Shown in pieces: positions 21,330 to 54,735 of a DNA stretch of 64,000 nucleotides (positions are counted from its first letter, which is position 1; every line of letters begins with the position of its first letter). Position numbers and translations under genes: made by a program. Origin of the DNA: a bacterium (GTDB taxonomy: Bacteria; UBA6262; WVXT01); NCBI GenBank assembly GCA_035530055.1, contig DATKVN010000010.1, positions 6,344 through 70,343 of the forward strand, in the 5' to 3' direction. Under the pieces are notes generated by a model. That model had not been told where the DNA came from and ran no database searches. It was given only the letters and a program-made list of their open reading frames with translations.

Positions 21330-22117
21330 GGGGACACAATACTTAATTATTATTCTTGGGTCCTGGTTTCCCCTTTTTTAATACCTTTCCGGTTATTTCC
21401 TCAAGTTTAGTAATAAATTTATCATCACCTAAAGGTCGACCGGTGCGGGCATGTTCTCTGAAGAGATTCCTATCTATGTCTCTATCGTCTTCAGCAAGAT
21501 ATGATGACCAGTCTTCTATTTCTGAAAGCATAAAGTTATCAGAAAGTAAAATATCCTTTTCTTTCAGAACATGAGCTTTCGCACTCGACCAAGGGTAATC
21601 TTCAGCCCTTTTCACTAACCCTGCTCTTACTGGATTCCGTTCAACATAACGGACAGCCGCATAAAGATACTGCTCGTCCAATGGATAAGATATAAATCGC
21701 CCCTGCCACAGATATCCCCTCCACCCTTCACGGAAATTAATCATGCGGGTATAGTATCTGTGTACCTGACCTATTCCCCTCGCTAAACTGTCTTCATTCT
21801 TGGGGACAGCTATTAAATGCACATGATTATCCATCAAACAATATGCCCAGAAAATTACACCAGCTTCTATGGCATGCTTATATAGAAGATTAATGTAGGA
21901 TTTCTTATCTTGGTCGCTGAAGAATACATTCTGAGAGCGATTGCCACGTTGGATAATATGATGAGGATAGTTAAGTATGACGATACGTGCTATTCGTGCC
22001 ATGACATAATTCTAACAAATCAAGTATCAGAAATCAATAATTAAGTATTGTATCCCGGAAACTGGTGGGACGGAACTGGTGGGGCGAAACTGGTGGATAA
22101 TTAAGTATTGTGTCCCC
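21330..22117. mobile_element. REP-associated tyrosine transposase (RAYT / IS200-like) element with 21-bp terminal inverted repeats and a duplicated right end
   Basis: Left IR GGGGACACAATACTTAATTAT (21330-21350). Right IRs at 22036-22056 (degenerate) and 22097-22117, separated by three GAACTGGTGGG units. It is preceded by the GAGTTCTGGGG x2 micro-duplication. Confidence 0.8.
21343..22002 (-). CDS. REP-associated tyrosine transposase (IS200/IS605 TnpA-like, HuH)
   Basis: 219 aa with the HuH motif (MDNHVHLIAVP) and conserved Y in the YYTRMINF region. The architecture matches RAYT/Y1 transposases. The stop codon lies inside the left IR. Confidence 0.85.
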   Translation of the reverse strand: MARIARIVILNYPHHIIQRGNRSQNVFFSDQDKKSYINLLYKHAIEAGVIFWAYCLMDNHVHLIAVPKNEDSLARGIGQVHRYYTRMINFREGWRGYLWQGRFISYPLDEQYLYAAVRYVERNPVRAGLVKRAEDYPWSSAKAHVLKEKDILLSDNFMLSEIEDWSSYLAEDDRDIDRNLFREHARTGRPLGDDKFITKLEEITGKVLKKGKPGPKNNN

Positions 22118-24054: not shown

Positions 24055-26391
24055 TTATGAACCTAATTTCCAGGAGATTCCTGCAAAAATTCTCCTGCCG
24101 GGCATTGGATAGCCAAAAACTGTCTGGTATTTTTTATCAAGAATGTTATCGAGAGAAATATACGCTTCCAGATTTCTGATTCTTTGAGCAATCCTCGCAT
24201 TAAGCAAAAAGCAGTCTGGTAATTTATCCCCTGTCTTTCCTCTATCGCTCCATTGTTCGTCAACATATTCTGTTCCTAAACTTAACTTTAAACCAAAATT
24301 GTTAGCATAATTAATCCTGTAGTTGACTCGATTGTGGGGATTATAAGGCGCAATTTCATACTTATCTTCTCCTTCTTTCTTCCCTGCGCTGCGGATATAG
24401 GTATAATTTATGCTCTGAGAAAGTCCTGACATAATTTGATGGATAAATTCTAATTCTACGCCCTGGCTATAGGCTTGGGCGACGTTAGAAGGCCTCCATA
24501 TAAAAGATGGATCCATTGCCCACTCTATCAAATCCTCTATGTTGGTCTCGAATAGGGTCACCCTGCTTAATAAAAAATTCCCTAATTGGTGTTCAAATCC
24601 AAGGTCATAAGCCCAGGCCTTTTCTGGCTTCAAATCGGGATTCCCCTCTGCTTGATAACCATAATCTGTGTAAGGCTGGTATAGATCGCAGAACGTTGGC
24701 GCTCGAAAGCCCCTTCCCAGATTGAACGAAAGTTTTAAAGATTCTCCTGGCTGAGAGAGCTGATAGACCAAACTGAAACTGGGATTTATTTGACCTCCAT
24801 ATGCTGAATGGTTGTCGTAGCGGAGGCCCATTGTTGTAGTCAATGGCTTAAGGGATAGAATCTCCTGGAGAAAGATAGATTCATTTAAGGTCCTTTCACC
24901 AATTATGGTCTGTGAATTGATTTTATTTCTCTGCTTATATTCATCCTGGTGAATGTCCATACCGAGTGTTATCCCGTATAGAGTATCTAACTGAGTCTCT
25001 ACTCCCCGGGTAACATTTTCGTGAAGGTCATCTCTTAGCTCATCGGGATTTCGGTCTCTCCTTTGGTCGTTACTGCCATAGGCTTTGAGCAACAATTTTG
25101 AATTTTCTCCTCCATTTGAGTATTCTAAAATGGCGTATTCTTTCTCGTCCTCCTGATTGTGGTTAGGGTCGGATGCGAATTTTTCCTCTAAAATAATTTT
25201 TTCCCATGTACTTGAGTCAAACGTATAATTAACACCGGGTAGTCCCAGTTTTCCTCTATGGTAACCGCCTCTAAGTTCAAAATTTCCGATTTTCCCGGCA
25301 CTGTATGCTAATCTCCCTGTAAAATTATGGTTGTCATACGCACTATTTTCCCGCCAGCCGTTGGAAGTATTGTTACTTATTGTAAAGTAGGTTTTAATAT
25401 TGGTATCTTTTGTTCCGAAATTTAATCTAGCTATCTGGGTGCCAAAACTTCCTAAACCAAAATTTACATCAGCTGTTACCTTCTCGTCTTTTGCTTCTCT
25501 GGTAATGATATTGACTACTCCTCCCAGAGCATTGGCACCGTAGAGGGCTGAGGCAGGACCGCGCACAACTTCTATTCTTTCAATATTGTCTATGGAAAAT
25601 TGGCTCAGGTCGGCTATTCCATCTGAGGTGCTATTTATAGAGCGACCATCGACCATTACTAGTGTCTGATATGCGGAACAACCCCGAAGCCCAATGTAAG
25701 AGGGAGCTCCCAAGGTTCCATATCTTCTTACTTCTACGCCCAATCTGTTTTTAAGGACTTCTCCCACGTTGTGAGCGTTACTTTCGGCGATTTCTTTCCT
25801 GGTGATTACACTGACGTTTGTGGGTAAATCTTTTAGCATTCTGGGGCCCCTGGTGGGAGTAATTACGATGACTCCCATGTCCCCCATATAGACTGCCTGT
25901 TCCTCTCTATGTTCCTTCTCCTTCTCTATCTCTATCTCCCTCTCTTCTATCTTCTGAGAGGAGACTATCTTCTCCTCTTCCACTTTCTCCCTCACTTCTT
26001 TTAAGTCCTTTTCCAGCTGTTCCTTTAAGATATTGGCCTCTTCTTCTCTCCTTGTCCTCTCAAATTCAAGTTTATCTACCCTCTTCTTGAGCTCCCGTTC
26101 CATTCTATTCTTCTCTTCCTCTTTAGCCCTGAGTCTCCCTTCAACTTCACGCTTGACTTCCTCAATTAATGCCTTCTCCTTCTCTATCTCTATCTCTATC
26201 TCTATCTCTATCTCCCTCTCTTCTATCTTCTCAGAGGAGACTCTCTTTTCCTCTGCCACTTTCTCCCTTACTTCCTTTAACTCCTTTCCCAGCCAGGCGA
26301 GACCAACCACAAGTAGAATGGCTGCCGAAATCAAAATTAAATTTTTCTTTCTTAGTAACATCCAGATTACCCCCTTAAGAAATGTTTCCAA
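24055..26391 (-). CDS. TonB-dependent outer-membrane receptor (BtuB-like by context) with an about 170-aa N-terminal hydrophobic anchor and E/K-rich coiled-coil extension
   Basis: TonB-box-like MGVIVITPTR, then the plug (NIERIEVVRGPASALYGANALGGVVNIITR), a 22-strand barrel and a C-terminal aromatic residue. The N-terminal extension contains an internal direct DNA duplication and a (TCTCTA)n hexamer tract encoding EIEIEIEIE. Confidence 0.8.
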   Translation of the reverse strand: METFLKGVIWMLLRKKNLILISAAILLVVGLAWLGKELKEVREKVAEEKRVSSEKIEEREIEIEIEIEIEKEKALIEEVKREVEGRLRAKEEEKNRMERELKKRVDKLEFERTRREEEANILKEQLEKDLKEVREKVEEEKIVSSQKIEEREIEIEKEKEHREEQAVYMGDMGVIVITPTRGPRMLKDLPTNVSVITRKEIAESNAHNVGEVLKNRLGVEVRRYGTLGAPSYIGLRGCSAYQTLVMVDGRSINSTSDGIADLSQFSIDNIERIEVVRGPASALYGANALGGVVNIITREAKDEKVTADVNFGLGSFGTQIARLNFGTKDTNIKTYFTISNNTSNGWRENSAYDNHNFTGRLAYSAGKIGNFELRGGYHRGKLGLPGVNYTFDSSTWEKIILEEKFASDPNHNQEDEKEYAILEYSNGGENSKLLLKAYGSNDQRRDRNPDELRDDLHENVTRGVETQLDTLYGITLGMDIHQDEYKQRNKINSQTIIGERTLNESIFLQEILSLKPLTTTMGLRYDNHSAYGGQINPSFSLVYQLSQPGESLKLSFNLGRGFRAPTFCDLYQPYTDYGYQAEGNPDLKPEKAWAYDLGFEHQLGNFLLSRVTLFETNIEDLIEWAMDPSFIWRPSNVAQAYSQGVELEFIHQIMSGLSQSINYTYIRSAGKKEGEDKYEIAPYNPHNRVNYRINYANNFGLKLSLGTEYVDEQWSDRGKTGDKLPDCFLLNARIAQRIRNLEAYISLDNILDKKYQTVFGYPMPGRRIFAGISWKLGS

Positions 26392-26457: not shown

Positions 26458-26670
26458 ACCTCCCTTTCGGGAGGACTCCAAAGACCCTGGAGTCCTTGCG
26501 AAAGCAAGGTCCCCTATATACCTCCCTTTCGGGAGGACTCCAAAGACCCTGGAGTCCTTGCGAAAGCAAGGTCCCCTATATACCTCCCTCTCGGCAGGAC
26601 TCCAAAGACCCTGGAGTCCTTGCGAAAACAAGGTCCCCTATATACCTCCCTCTCGGCAGGACTCCGGACT
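26458..26670. repeat. Tandem array of 3.4 x 62-bp units, each made of three hairpins (CCTCCC-TTTC-GGGAGG; GGACTCC-N9-GGAGTCC; CCTTGC-GAAA-GCAAGG)
   Basis: Units at 26458-26519, 26520-26581, 26582-26643 and a partial at 26644-26670 are over 93% identical. They lie between the cobO stop and the TonB-dependent receptor start. Confidence 0.9.
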
Positions 26671-32610: not shown

Positions 32611-32780
32611 AAACCCAACCTTCACTTGAAAGTTGGGACTGAAGCCTTATGAATTCGGCCAACCCTCCCGCGAAGGCACTATATTGCAAACAGGTTCTCG
32701 GACTTGCTTCTGTTAAGAAGCTCACCGTTGCGGGGCAGTGTCCGGTTTTCACGGACTTCCCCTATTTACATAAAAAATAT
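32611..32780 (-). promoter_or_regulatory. Cobalamin (AdoCbl) riboswitch with terminator-type expression platform
   Basis: Minus-strand RNA reads GGGGAAGUCCGUGAAAACCGGACACUGCCCCGCAACGGUGAGC ... AAGUCCGAGAACCUGUUUGC (B12-box-like), then the terminator CCCAACUUUCAAGUGAAGGUUGGG + UUUUUU ending 22 nt before the cobU ATG. Confidence 0.8.
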
Positions 32781-32787
32781 TTAATTT

Positions 32788-32818
32788 ATTCTACTATATA
32801 TGCTCTTCCTCTGTCAAG
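32788..32818 (-). promoter_or_regulatory. Sigma70-like promoter for the riboswitch-cob/btu operon
   Basis: Minus-strand TTGACA (32813-32818), a 19-nt spacer, then TAGAAT (32788-32793). The spacer is one or two nt longer than optimal. Confidence 0.4.
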
Positions 32819-33699: not shown

Positions 33700-33795
33700 G
33701 TCCTGCCGATTTCATCGGGGGAATAACTATCTTCCTCCCTCTCGGGAGGACTCCATACCCAGACTTTCTTCGGGAGGAATCCAGAAAAATTTAAA
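33700..33795. repeat. Hairpin modules (CCCCGATGAAATCGGGG; CCTCCCTCTCGGGAGG; GGACTCC)
   Basis: Members of the CCTCCC/GGGAGG family. Confidence 0.7.
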
Positions 33796-33935: not shown

Positions 33936-34613
33936 TCATTTGCTGAATTTATATTTAAGTATAGTTAAAATGCCTGAAAGAGCATCTTTCCAGTTGATTT
34001 TCTTTCCCTCTTTTAATGTTCTGGGAGAATATGATATGGGGATTTCATGAATCTCGTAACCTTTCTTCAGCAATTTAACTGTAACTTCGGCTTCAAATTC
34101 AAACCTTTTTGCTTGCAATGTCAAATTTTTTAGAACGCCAGTTTCAAAGGCCTTATAGCAGGTATATGAATCGGTGATCCTGGAACGGTATAATATATTG
34201 ACTAACCAGGTCAAAAACTTGTTGCCTAAAAGGTAACGCAAGTAAATAGGTTTGTTAAATTGTAGAAATCTGGAACCATAAATAATCTTGGCTTTTCTAT
34301 CCAGAATTGGTCTCATCAATTTATGGTACTCTTCGGGGTCATATTCTAAATCAGCATCCTGTATGATTGTTACCTCTCCCTCAAGGTAGGGAATCGCTGT
34401 CCTTATTGCGCTTCCCTTTCCCTGGTTTTTCGTATGGTAAATTACTCTTATATTTTCATCCCTCAATTTTTCCAATATCTCTCTCGTCCTGTCAGTGGAA
34501 CCGTCATCAACTATAACAATTTGCTTATCAATATTTACTTTTTTTACTTTGTCGATGATGTTTAGTATCGTACTTTCTTCATTAAAAACTGGCATGATAA
34601 CTGATAATTTCAC
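33936..34613 (-). CDS. Family 2 glycosyltransferase (polyprenol-phosphate sugar transferase-like)
   Basis: 225 aa with SVIMPVFNEE, DDGSTD, the DxD motif (QDADLEYD) and GSRF. Confidence 0.8.
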   Translation of the reverse strand: MKLSVIMPVFNEESTILNIIDKVKKVNIDKQIVIVDDGSTDRTREILEKLRDENIRVIYHTKNQGKGSAIRTAIPYLEGEVTIIQDADLEYDPEEYHKLMRPILDRKAKIIYGSRFLQFNKPIYLRYLLGNKFLTWLVNILYRSRITDSYTCYKAFETGVLKNLTLQAKRFEFEAEVTVKLLKKGYEIHEIPISYSPRTLKEGKKINWKDALSGILTILKYKFSK

Positions 34614-36112
34614 AACTTCTCCTCTTTTAATGTCTTCTTCAAAAACTGGAGAGCTTCCTCTTTATTTTTTAATTTTCCTCCCGCCTGGATTTCTGCTACT
34701 CTTTTCAATAACTTGCCAATCAAAGGACCTTGAGGAAGATTGAAACTTTTCATAATCTCATCTCCTCGAACAAGAGGTTTAGGCAAGATTCGTTCTTTAT
34801 GGTAGTAGTACTTGTTTAACATTTTTCTAACAGTCTGTTCATGTTTCCTTATGGACTTTCGACTTATTTCTATGGCAAACTTTTTATCTCGCTCAGGTAG
34901 AATCTTTCGATAAGAATAGCGGTCTGCCAGAGAGAGAAGAAGAGTGTCCACTCCTTCTTCAGAAAGGTCTCTAAAAAAGCGATGGATTGCTCTATCGGTC
35001 AACCGAGGAGCTTCATTCAAGTTACCGGGACGCATATGGTGCTTAACCGTCTTCTCTACAATTTTGATTGCCTTATTACTGAATTTAAGCCTCTGCATAA
35101 TTTCCATAACCAGTGAGGCTCCCTTTTCATCGTGACCAAAAAACCGAACCCTTCCCTCTTCCCTCCTTACTGTTTTTGGCTTACCGATGTCGTGAAAAAT
35201 TGCTGCCCACTTTAAAAGAGATTTTCTTTCTACTTCACCAAATATTTTCTCATCGAGATGAGCCATTATCTTGCTAGACATCCGGGGAAAGAGCTTGACC
35301 AGGTTAGCAAAAATCTCTTCCAAGGATTTGAGAGTCTCCAGGGAATGTCCCCACAGCCCTTCCCGGTGGTAATAATTTCCAGGTTTCTCCTTCATTATTT
35401 TTATTTCAGGAATGATTCTGTTCAAAAGTCCTATTCTGTGCAGTCTTTGAAGATATCGATAACCTTGAGGTGCAAAGAGAATCTTGAACAATTCGTCTCT
35501 TATTCTCTCTCTGGCTACGCTTTTAATTAAATCGACCTTCTTTTTAATTTCATCCTCTGTTTTTTTCTCTATAGCAAATTCCAAGGTGGCTGCCAGGCGA
35601 TATCCGCGGAGTAATCTCAAGGGGTCATCGTCAAAAATTTTGCGAGAAGTTCTCCTTACTATTCTCTTTTTCAAATCTCCTATCCCGCCAGAAGGGTCTA
35701 TAATTAACCTGGACAGGAGTTTCGCCCGTTTTAAGGTTTTGAGGCTTCCTTCTATTTGGTCTAATCTCACAGCCATTGCATCGATGGTGAAATCTCTTAG
35801 TAAAAGGTCTTCTTTTATTTCTTTTCCGCGCATTTGAGAGAAGTCTAAATTGAATATCTGTTTATCTTTCTTCTTGGATATTTTCTGTTTTACTACCCGA
35901 TAAATCCTGTTTTTCTCATCCAGAAGAACAAAACTGCCGCTCACTTCACTGGCGAAATTCCTGGCGAACTTCTCAGCATCTCCTTCAGGAACAAAATCAA
36001 AATCCCCGGTCTCCCTTCCCAATAGTAAATCTCTTAGGGAACCACCCACCAGAAATATTTTTCTGTTAGATTTATTTGCAAAATTTAATATCAGTTTCAG
36101 CAATTTTTCCAT
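34610..36112 (-). CDS. CCA-adding tRNA nucleotidyltransferase / poly(A) polymerase family protein with HD domain
   Basis: Pol-beta head (FLVGGSLRDLLLGRETGDFDFV), the RNA-binding region and an HD motif (AAIFHDIGKP). The start was set at MEKLLK (ATG at 36112). The listed start further upstream lies in CCTCCC/GGGAGG repeats. Confidence 0.8.
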   Translation of the reverse strand: MEKLLKLILNFANKSNRKIFLVGGSLRDLLLGRETGDFDFVPEGDAEKFARNFASEVSGSFVLLDEKNRIYRVVKQKISKKKDKQIFNLDFSQMRGKEIKEDLLLRDFTIDAMAVRLDQIEGSLKTLKRAKLLSRLIIDPSGGIGDLKKRIVRRTSRKIFDDDPLRLLRGYRLAATLEFAIEKKTEDEIKKKVDLIKSVARERIRDELFKILFAPQGYRYLQRLHRIGLLNRIIPEIKIMKEKPGNYYHREGLWGHSLETLKSLEEIFANLVKLFPRMSSKIMAHLDEKIFGEVERKSLLKWAAIFHDIGKPKTVRREEGRVRFFGHDEKGASLVMEIMQRLKFSNKAIKIVEKTVKHHMRPGNLNEAPRLTDRAIHRFFRDLSEEGVDTLLLSLADRYSYRKILPERDKKFAIEISRKSIRKHEQTVRKMLNKYYYHKERILPKPLVRGDEIMKSFNLPQGPLIGKLLKRVAEIQAGGKLKNKEEALQFLKKTLKEEKL

Positions 36113-36298
36113 TTCAGTGCATGCGTTAGAAGGTCTCTGAAAATTCTGGACTCCTTGCGAATCGCGTAGGGGCGACCCTTGTGGTCGCCCGAACCTCCCT
36201 TTCGGGAGGACTCCACAAATTCTGGATTCCTTGCGAGAGCAAGGTTTTTTCCTCCCTCCCTTTCGGGAGGACTCCAAACTCCGATTTTGATAGGGCTC
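36113..36298. repeat. Hairpin-module mosaic (GCGACCCTTGTGGTCGCC; two CCTCCCTTTCGGGAGGACTCC units; CCTTGCGAGAGCAAGG)
   Basis: Members of the CCTCCC/GGGAGG family. Confidence 0.8.
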
Positions 36299-54449: not shown

Positions 54450-54521
54450 TGGGCAATGCTGGGGTTGAACCAGCGACTTCTGCCTTGTGAAAGCAGCGCT
54501 CTCCCGCTGAGCTAATTGCCC
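54450..54521 (-). tRNA. tRNA-Val (anticodon CAC), CCA not encoded
   Basis: Reverse complement GGGCAATTAGCTCAGCGGGAGAGCGCTGCTTTCACAAGGCAGAAGTCGCTGGTTCAACCCCAGCATTGCCCA. Anticodon loop TTCACAA, T-loop GGTTCAACC. Confidence 0.9.
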
Positions 54522-54554: not shown

Positions 54555-54666
54555 CCAAGGTCTGCTACTCCACAGTCTTTTGGAGTAGCGAAACTTGTTT
54601 CGCGTTAATAACAAGGTCTGCTACTCCACAGTCTTTTGGAGTAGCGAAACTTGTTTCGCGTTAATA
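54555..54666. repeat. Perfect tandem duplication, 2 x 56 bp (AAGGTCTGCTACTCCACAGTCTTTTGGAGTAGCGAAACTTGTTTCGCGTTAATAAC)
   Basis: Each unit contains the nested inverted repeat GCTACTCC...GGAGTAGC and GCGAAAC-TT-GTTTCGC. A single copy occurs at 61600-61660. Confidence 0.9.
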
Positions 54667-54735
54667 ACGCAGAGCAATCTCTGCTTATTCCTTTTAAAAT
54701 AATTATAATGCGATAATGAAATTTTGTCAAGAAGT

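Follow-up and report, generated by a model that had tools for sequence, protein, structure and literature searches.

A strain-polymorphic insertion, apparently derived from a giant repeat protein, precedes the TonB box of a BtuB-like receptor

Introduction

Why does a corrinoid receptor carry some 130 charged residues between its signal peptide and its TonB box when most of its close orthologues carry none? The question is raised by a TonB-dependent receptor gene in a 64-kb stretch of contig DATKVN010000010.1 (assembly GCA_035530055.1, positions 6,344 to 70,343, forward strand), from a bacterium of the GTDB lineage UBA6262; WVXT01. This whole stretch is called the window below. A sequence-only reading of the window had described a hydrophobic anchor followed by a Glu/Lys-rich coiled-coil extension of about 150 residues, and had proposed either a periplasm-spanning spacer or a signalling extension comparable in position to the N-terminal domain of FecA. 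We find an ordinary BtuB-type receptor with an insert that is probably derived from a donor gene, recently acquired, spread by recombination and tolerated as a near-neutral passenger, rather than a signalling or spacer domain.

Results

A 387-bp insertion between the signal peptide and the TonB box

The receptor gene lies on the minus strand (Table 1) and starts at an ATG at 26361, with a Shine-Dalgarno sequence, AAGGGGGT, 7 nt 5' of it (26369..26376, minus strand). The TTG at 26391 is merely the start of the mechanically longest open reading frame (ORF). The N-terminus reads MLLRKKNLILISAAILLVVGLAWLG, continues with residues K26-Q155 and then passes into AVYMGDMGVIVITPTR. The 130 residues from K26 to Q155 consist of 62% Glu, Lys and Arg (E+K+R) and 24% hydrophobic residues, with no proline, a single glycine and a net charge of -11.

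Comparison with close orthologues defined the extent of the additional sequence. Among the closest homologues, which are 73-91% identical to the receptor, 35 orthologues of about 640 residues pass from ...GLAWG directly to EEQAVYMGDLGVIVITPTR, as in the short allele that reads MLLRRKNLILILAAILLAVGLAWG-EEQAVYMGDLGVIVITPTR. The DNA alignment displays a single clean 387-bp gap between ...CTCGCCTGG and GGAGAGGAACAGGCAGTC, around which the 5' untranslated region (UTR), the Shine-Dalgarno sequence, the ATG and the signal peptide are all conserved; the Shine-Dalgarno sequence is kept as AAGGAGGT across all aligned orthologues. Relative to these orthologues the insertion adds 129 residues in frame, about 10 residues before the TonB box, at the junction of the signal peptide and the mature N-terminus. 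The E/K-rich extension described earlier is real, and it is translated and located before the TonB box, behind translation and export signals common to about 40 orthologues; its size is 129 residues (387 bp), not about 150. The insert is present in only 6 assemblies among about 45 close orthologues (Table 1) and missing from about 40.

The segment that had been read as a hydrophobic anchor has the n-h-c layout of the signal peptidase I type (RKK, 15 hydrophobic residues, GLA). Because it is shared with the orthologues, this segment is the orthologous signal peptide, of the cleavable type and common to about 40 of them. It is most simply taken as an ordinary Sec signal peptide that would be cleaved, possibly at a putative signal peptidase I site, GLA/W, that is kept in the long alleles. 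At the junction, short alleles read ...VGLAWG/EEQAVYMGD and long alleles ...VGLAWLG/KELKE. Neither of the internal methionines M159 and M162 is followed by a hydrophobic segment, and therefore the extension must be translated if the receptor is to be exported.

Relationship of the insert to a giant repeat protein

When GTDB species genomes were scanned with the receptor, a second locus surfaced that matched only query residues 24-163. It was found in two metagenome-assembled genomes (MAGs) that themselves carry short receptor alleles. The proteins encoded there comprise 1121 residues (L013) and 1228 residues (L014), and a metagenome homologue (L016) exceeds 1512 residues. All are of the cytoplasmic type, lacking a signal peptide; their N-terminus is Pro-rich, E/K/R make up about 52-55% of their residues, and a 68-residue tandem repeat is present in 10 or more units.

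The insert is colinear along its full length with residues 1014-1135 (57% identity) and 1154-1276 (55%) of the L016 protein, and the only gap, of 6 residues, falls exactly at the (EI)n tract. The alignment of insert and donor scores 138 bits. Shuffling the insert 200 times gave 58.1±3.4 bits (maximum 73), and other, equally E/K-rich regions of the donors score only 55-68 bits. With composition-based statistics the match has an E-value of 4e-25, or of 2e-17 when scaled to 2.4e11 residues. At the DNA level the insert and the donor repeats are 74-83% identical, which is comparable to the 80-85% reported for the window against the receptor-operon genes of the donor-carrying MAGs (L009, L010). These alignments identify the insert as one unbroken stretch, some 1.5 units long, of the 68-residue array; it belongs to the C-terminal subtype, whose linker reads "EKEKALIEE...". 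The part shared with the donors is copied colinearly over about 123 residues and follows the pattern ...ELKE[IL]R.KLE...VSSQKIEEKERELEREKALIEELK..IEGRLRAKEEEKNR.E.ELKK.IEELE.E. The donors, which belong to no Pfam family, differ from the insert in that the latter has only 1.5 units, stands behind a signal peptide and bears an (EI)n expansion that they lack.

Every related lineage that was sampled has the donor array, whereas few strains have the receptor insert, so that transfer from donor to receptor is the parsimonious direction. Both junctions are purine-rich and display short shared strings, GGA on the left and GAGAGGAACAG on the right, which suggests that microhomology-mediated illegitimate recombination may have placed the fragment.

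Searches of large collections were of little use with this query. Pfam gave no match within residues 26-155, even at E<=1, and NCBIfam and PDB sequence searches with the insert gave no meaningful match. A protein-database search with the insert alone, and one with the L014 donor ORF, returned nothing and are uninformative for such a low-complexity query. A representative all-against-all search with the insert produced one match, to an unrelated repeat protein (P0128, 28%, E 4e-5). Local phmmer and blastp comparisons of the insert with the donors score strongly. Since the large searches missed the known donors, their outcome is uninformative and is not evidence of absence.

The surroundings of the donor gene are of separate note. 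The locus contains, in order, two TPR proteins, a 644-residue fusion protein, the giant 68-residue-repeat protein, MotA and MotB/OmpA, and the fusion protein joins a signal peptide, FliF_C, a transmembrane segment, FliG_M, FliG_C and TPR. The literature on FliG and MotA in non-flagellar contexts gave nothing specific for this unusual rotor/stator-like cluster, and no described system matching it.

Internal repeat and hexamer tract

The insert contains a direct repeat of 101 nt at 90% identity (25917-26017 and 26193-26293), which blastn widens to 125 nt at 86% (E 9e-36). The sequence-only reading had noticed this repeat, placed it at 25890-25985 and 26170-26270 and taken it for a direct duplication of the DNA. 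The repeat itself is confirmed at the shifted positions. A local tandem duplication was rejected as its source, as the inherited periodicity of the donor fits instead: an insert of about 1.5 donor units holds a direct repeat of about 100 nt.

The in-frame TCTCTA tract that had been read from the sequence is present and perfect (Table 1). The window allele, P0121 and P0123 encode (EI)5 at this position, L001 encodes (EI)4, L008 (EI)2 and L002 ER+EI, so that roughly 5, 4 and 2 GAGATA copies and one degenerate form are found in different assemblies. The prediction that the length of the extension varies between strains is borne out by these counts. The donors have E(K/R)ELE(K/R)EK at the tract position; the second copy of the insert, and both copies in L008, have EREIEIEKEK; and the first copy has grown to (EI)4 or (EI)5 in the lineage of the window. 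In view of this, the hexamer tract is a microsatellite that arose secondarily. A role of the tract in on/off phase variation was considered and rejected, since a 6-bp unit inside the ORF adds or removes two residues (EI) and always keeps the frame: copy number varies as at a contingency locus, and on/off switching does not occur.

The window and L001 share 99.92-99.98% identity across 22.3 kb (six single-nucleotide polymorphisms), and they differ by one GAGATA unit and by one 62-bp unit of the spacer upstream of the gene. L019 combines (EI)5 with the shorter spacer, and the hexamer and 62-bp tracts therefore vary independently.

Divergence and distribution of the insert among alleles

We compared the window, L002 and L008 alleles for the proportions of synonymous (pS) and nonsynonymous (pN) differences. 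For pS, the insert gives 0.014-0.042 and the plug and barrel give 0.31-0.57. The pN/pS ratio of the insert, 0.6-1.3, is about 1 (7-14 substitutions per comparison), as against 0.08-0.27 elsewhere. On these values no purifying selection is detectable in the insert.

Sliding identity between the window and L002 is 95-99% in the 5'UTR, the signal peptide and the insert, and then drops to 70-87%. Over much of the barrel the window is matched at 99-100% identity by a short allele, L018, which lacks the insert and is 80-90% identical at the 5' end. The operon genes flanking the receptor in the window are 93-96% identical to those of short-allele loci (L003, L004, L012) and 88% identical to those of the insert-bearing L008. 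Taken together, the sequences indicate that the insert has a single recent origin, exists as a presence/absence polymorphism and has spread between diverged alleles by short-tract recombination.

The barrel region (24055-25800) is in its own right a recombination mosaic. Against L002, L003, L004 and L018 its identity ranges from 70 to 100%, and the closest allele changes from segment to segment.

Predicted structure of the N-terminal region

The receptor was modelled with AlphaFold2 from an alignment of 62 sequences (mean predicted local distance difference test score, pLDDT, 84.8). The plug and the barrel are confident, with most of the barrel above 90. The extension is predicted to be helical, as the coiled-coil reading had implied: a first helix (residues 5-38) runs from the signal peptide into the insert and ends at a break, VSSEK (39-44), and a second helix of about 109 residues covers 45-153. 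Residues 50-120 have a pLDDT of about 80, and values are below 50 near the second break motif, VSSQK, and near the junction. At 0.15 nm per residue, the long helix would measure about 16 nm, and the width of the periplasm is comparable.

The sequence of the insert resembles single α-helix (SAH) domains and long coiled coils in its 62% E+K+R, its lack of proline and its long unbroken predicted helix, and differs in its 24% hydrophobic residues, partly at a 3-4 spacing, and its (EI)n tract. Pairs of opposite charge at i,i+4 number 31, compared with 25.5±3.9 in shuffles (1.4 sd above). The hydrophobic spacing and the charge pattern would fit a single α-helix and a coiled coil alike.

Identity of the receptor and its operon

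Apart from the insert, the protein is an intact TonB-dependent receptor in which Plug, barrel and TonB box are all present. Pfam recognizes Plug (PF07715) at residues 177-282 (E 4.2e-28; 98.4 bits, the cut-off being 23.9) and the TonB_dep_Rec barrel (PF00593) at residues 313-740 (E 2.1e-41). Just before Plug, the motif GVIVITPTR is near-invariant in all close orthologues, and we take it, by eye and by comparison with DTLVVTANR of BtuB, to be the TonB box.

The receptor is the last gene of a minus-strand string cobU-cobT-cobS-btuF-btuC-btuD-cobO-receptor, with btuFCD-like transport genes, that is headed by a cobalamin riboswitch. The domains encoded directly upstream (CobU, DBI_PRT of CobT, CobS, Peripla_BP_2, FecCD, ABC_tran and CobA/CobO) are syntenic in relatives. 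Genes flanking the receptor or near it include cobO, dksA/traR and glgC. The top NCBIfam family is TIGR01779 TonB-B12, at 205.8 bits, below its cut-off of 599.7, and NF007926 scores 160.3 bits against a cut-off of 836, so that the protein falls short of the BtuB equivalog level. The receptor is a BtuB-like corrinoid receptor, an identity that comes from genomic context and not from model score. It shares with BtuB-type receptors the Plug and 22-strand-type barrel, the riboswitch-headed operon of btuFCD-like and cob salvage genes, TonB-B12 as top family and, in its short alleles, a TonB box near the mature N-terminus; the window allele differs by the approximately 130 additional residues between signal peptide and TonB box.

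Other features of the window

The spacer between cobO and the receptor holds a 62-bp tandem hairpin repeat (Table 1), each unit of which contains three small GC-rich hairpins (CCTCCC-GAAA-GGGAGG, GGACTCC..GGAGTCC and CCTTGC-TTTCG-CAAGG). The RNA fold of the spacer has an energy of -157.8 kcal/mol (z = -8.9). A promoter scan of spacer and gene gave nothing above shuffles, and the terminator-like matches are the hairpin repeats themselves. Hairpin modules recur at 33734, 36194-36270, 43999, 47314, 47472, 51551 and 61584, and module sites in the window number 10 and 6, against 0.05 and 0.03 expected. They look like a family of dispersed palindromic elements similar to repetitive extragenic palindromic (REP) sequences. 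A single-copy Y1_Tnp (IS200-like) gene at 21343-22002 (minus strand), about 2 kb or two genes downstream of the receptor and syntenic in L001, L004 and L005, may encode a REP-associated tyrosine transposase (RAYT) linked to these repeats.

At 34610-36277 (minus strand), the longest ORF of a gene similar to CCA-adding enzyme/PolyA_pol begins within REP-like hairpins, from which its N-terminus, MESSRKGGRKKPCSRKESRICGVLPKGRF, is translated; the gene call in L001 has 500 residues, so that the start codon used probably lies further downstream. A perfect 56-bp tandem repeat of two units with hairpin-like modules (54556-54668) adjoins a tRNA gene (54450-54521). Lastly, a distant homologue of the receptor, of 839 residues and 39% identity (P0047), has an atypical architecture: its N-terminal region is long, and it contains a CsgG-family domain (PF03783) as well.

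Table 1. Positions of features in the window, insert-bearing alleles and coordinates of the related donor loci.
Feature	Position	Strand	Evidence or remark
TonB-dependent receptor gene, BtuB-like	24055..26361	-	768 aa + stop; Plug and TonB_dep_Rec barrel matches, AlphaFold2
Beta-barrel domain	24142..25425	-	residues 313-740; mosaic among strains
Plug domain	25516..25833	-	residues 177-282, Pfam
TonB box region GVIVITPTR	25849..25875	-	residues 163-171, just before Plug
Internal repeat, second copy (KDLKEVREKVEEEKIVSSQKIEEREIEIEKEKE)	25894..26017	-	repeat search, blastn
In-frame insertion of 387 bp, E/K/R-rich, predicted helical	25906..26292	-	alignment columns 110-496; most orthologues without it
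Internal repeat, first copy (KELKEVREKVAEEKRVSSEKIEEREIEI...EKEK)	26170..26293	-	matches second half of donor repeat unit
(GAGATA)n hexamer tract (TCTCTA on + strand)	26181..26214	-	x5.7, 100% matches; encodes (EI)5
Signal peptide region (MLLRKKNLILISAAILLVVGLAWLG)	26287..26361	-	residues 1-25, orthologous to signal peptide of ~640-aa alleles
62-bp tandem hairpin repeat, cobO-receptor spacer	26458..26665	.	x3.4; one unit fewer in L001, L019
Cobalamin riboswitch heading cob/btuFCD/receptor string	32673..32808	-	44 bits, E 9e-8
Insert-bearing allele, window			product identical to HUW22652.1, P0121
Insert-bearing allele, L001			ERZ27256810
Insert-bearing allele, L019			ERZ27256847
Insert-bearing allele, P0127			JGI
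Insert-bearing allele, L002			ERZ27247703
Insert-bearing allele, L008			GTDB species representative CAYOFG01
Donor locus, L013	2089-5454		related MAG, outside window
Donor locus, L014	2110-5796		related MAG, outside window
Donor locus, L016	1571-6107		related MAG, outside window
Donor locus, L017	1-8435		related MAG, outside window

Discussion

The history that we consider probable begins with a 387-bp fragment of the giant repeat-protein gene, which would have inserted in frame behind the signal peptide, in what is now a minority of alleles, by illegitimate recombination at microhomologies in purine-rich junctions (GGA and GAGAGGAACAG). Slippage of the GAGATA hexamer may then have expanded the EREIEIEKEK motif. 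Once exported, the receptor in its mature form would bear a highly charged, largely α-helical periplasmic tail of about 130 residues extending from the TonB box. The site would tolerate the insert, and short-tract homologous recombination would spread it among diverged alleles.

That such a tail could be borne is made plausible by other receptors. A survey of 34,893 TonB-dependent transporters (TBDTs) described STN, CarboxypepD_reg and AMIN domains before the TonB box and five N-terminal architectures (PMC6434023). FecA without its signalling domain stays transport-competent (PMC11658791), and Oar still functions without its N-terminal extension (NTE), secretion remaining intact (PMC6434023). 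Whole domains stand there in FecA, FoxA, Oar and SusC; the position before the TonB box is thus permissive, and the insertion would for that reason be tolerated. Transporters with the Oar/SusC NTE or AMIN likewise accept added domains at this point, and the insert differs from theirs in being a low-complexity helical sequence that matches none of their Pfam domains; in particular, CarboxypepD_reg (PF13620/PF13715) gave no Pfam match in the receptor.

Several observations weigh against a neutral, donor-derived passenger. The frame is intact in all six insert-bearing alleles, which is however expected in any case, as frameshifts would destroy the receptor. The residues behind the cleavage region are altered, from WG/EE to WLG/KE. 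The 7-14 substitutions per comparison are also compatible with weak constraint, and the presence of a young insert in backgrounds about 20% apart could instead reflect positive selection. No copy of the donor was found by tblastn or blastn in the 64-kb window or in L001, and the closest donors, only 55-57% identical, come from related MAGs and not from the genome of the window itself.

The best-surviving alternative, which we nevertheless regard as unlikely, is that the extension is functional: a rigid charged helix would act as a periplasmic spacer or spring that changes the contact between TonB box and TonB or touches another envelope component, and selection for it would have driven a recombinational sweep through diverged receptor alleles. 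By pS the insert is at least 10 times younger than the gene, yet it occurs in three backgrounds that are 80-82% identical, as a sweep could produce, and the frame has survived in every assembly that carries it. The predicted helix of about 109 residues and 16 nm is of the order of the periplasm width, and elsewhere SAH domains work as spacers or as constant-force springs (PMC4183817, PMC5378345). This reading is opposed by the pN/pS of about 1 in the insert, by a length that is not fixed, from (EI)1 to (EI)5, and by the roughly 40 close orthologues without it, including strains with 99-100% identical barrels and 93-96% identical flanking genes. Because the donor protein lacks a signal peptide, the fragment did not evolve for periplasmic use, and no partner gene is linked. 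Modulation of TonB coupling or tethering is possible in principle and unsupported here, and nothing points to the periplasmic spacer role proposed earlier. A more specific version, in which the helix is a newly recruited periplasmic rod or spring at the TonB box that alters TonB-ExbBD force coupling or forms a tether for the receptor from one side of the periplasm to the other, taken from a motor-associated coiled-coil protein and sweeping a natural population by recombination, appears slightly less likely again.

It is very improbable that the signal sequence stays uncleaved and anchors the receptor to the inner membrane through a periplasm-spanning helix. The change from AWG/EE to AWLG/KE after the h-region might weaken cleavage, and the helix is about long enough to cross the periplasm. 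Against this, the TonB box of about 40 orthologues lies at most 10 residues after the same segment, which must be cleaved there; the small-residue site G-L-A/W is kept in the long alleles, and the segment follows the n-h-c plan of signal peptidase I substrates.

We give hardly any credence to an artefact, whether an untranslated E/K region behind a wrong start or a chimeric assembly. Purine-rich repeats do assemble poorly, and copy numbers vary between assemblies; the insert however occupies the same site, in frame, in six independent assemblies whose flanking alleles differ (from ENA, NCBI, JGI and a co-assembly), the Shine-Dalgarno sequence, ATG and signal peptide upstream of it are conserved, and a start at M159 or M162 would leave the receptor unexportable. 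An ORF-calling artefact was rejected on the N-termini of the orthologues and the DNA alignment.

Least probable of all is a FecA-type extension that signals to an anti-sigma factor: the one resemblance to FecA, FpvA and FoxA is its location before the TonB box (PMC11658791), whereas Pfam and NCBIfam found no STN (PF07660) or other domain, the prediction is a single long helix and not the mixed α/β STN fold, no FecR/FecI-like, anti-sigma or ECF genes are nearby (the neighbours being cobO and dksA/traR), the operon is headed by a cobalamin riboswitch, and a segment found in 6 assemblies among about 45 close orthologues with a pN/pS of about 1 is not what the signalling analogy of the sequence-only reading would lead one to expect. 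The insert does share with these transducers some 80-130 additional periplasmic residues N-terminal to the TonB box, in a receptor that works with or without them; it differs in having neither STN nor a sigma/anti-sigma partner and in being strain-polymorphic, apparently unconstrained and predicted to form one long helix.

On the reading that we prefer, that of a TBDT bearing a tolerated, non-globular fragment of a repeat protein at its N-terminus, the locus would offer a dated and traceable case of domain accretion in an outer-membrane transporter, in which the donor family, the site, the microhomology at the junctions, microsatellite growth and spread by recombination are legible from the sequence. 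The position before the TonB box would accept even a charged helix of 130 residues, which bears on how extensions of the FecA, Oar and AMIN types could arise and on the engineering of periplasmic tags on TBDTs. The case is also a warning for annotation, because an odd N-terminal "extension" may be a strain-level polymorphism and not a feature of the family. If the helix is functional, the alleles with and without it would constitute a natural experiment on the distance and force needs of TonB coupling. Should it prove to be a recruited module, it would add to the five N-terminal architectures described for TBDTs a sixth class, non-globular and seen at its very beginning.

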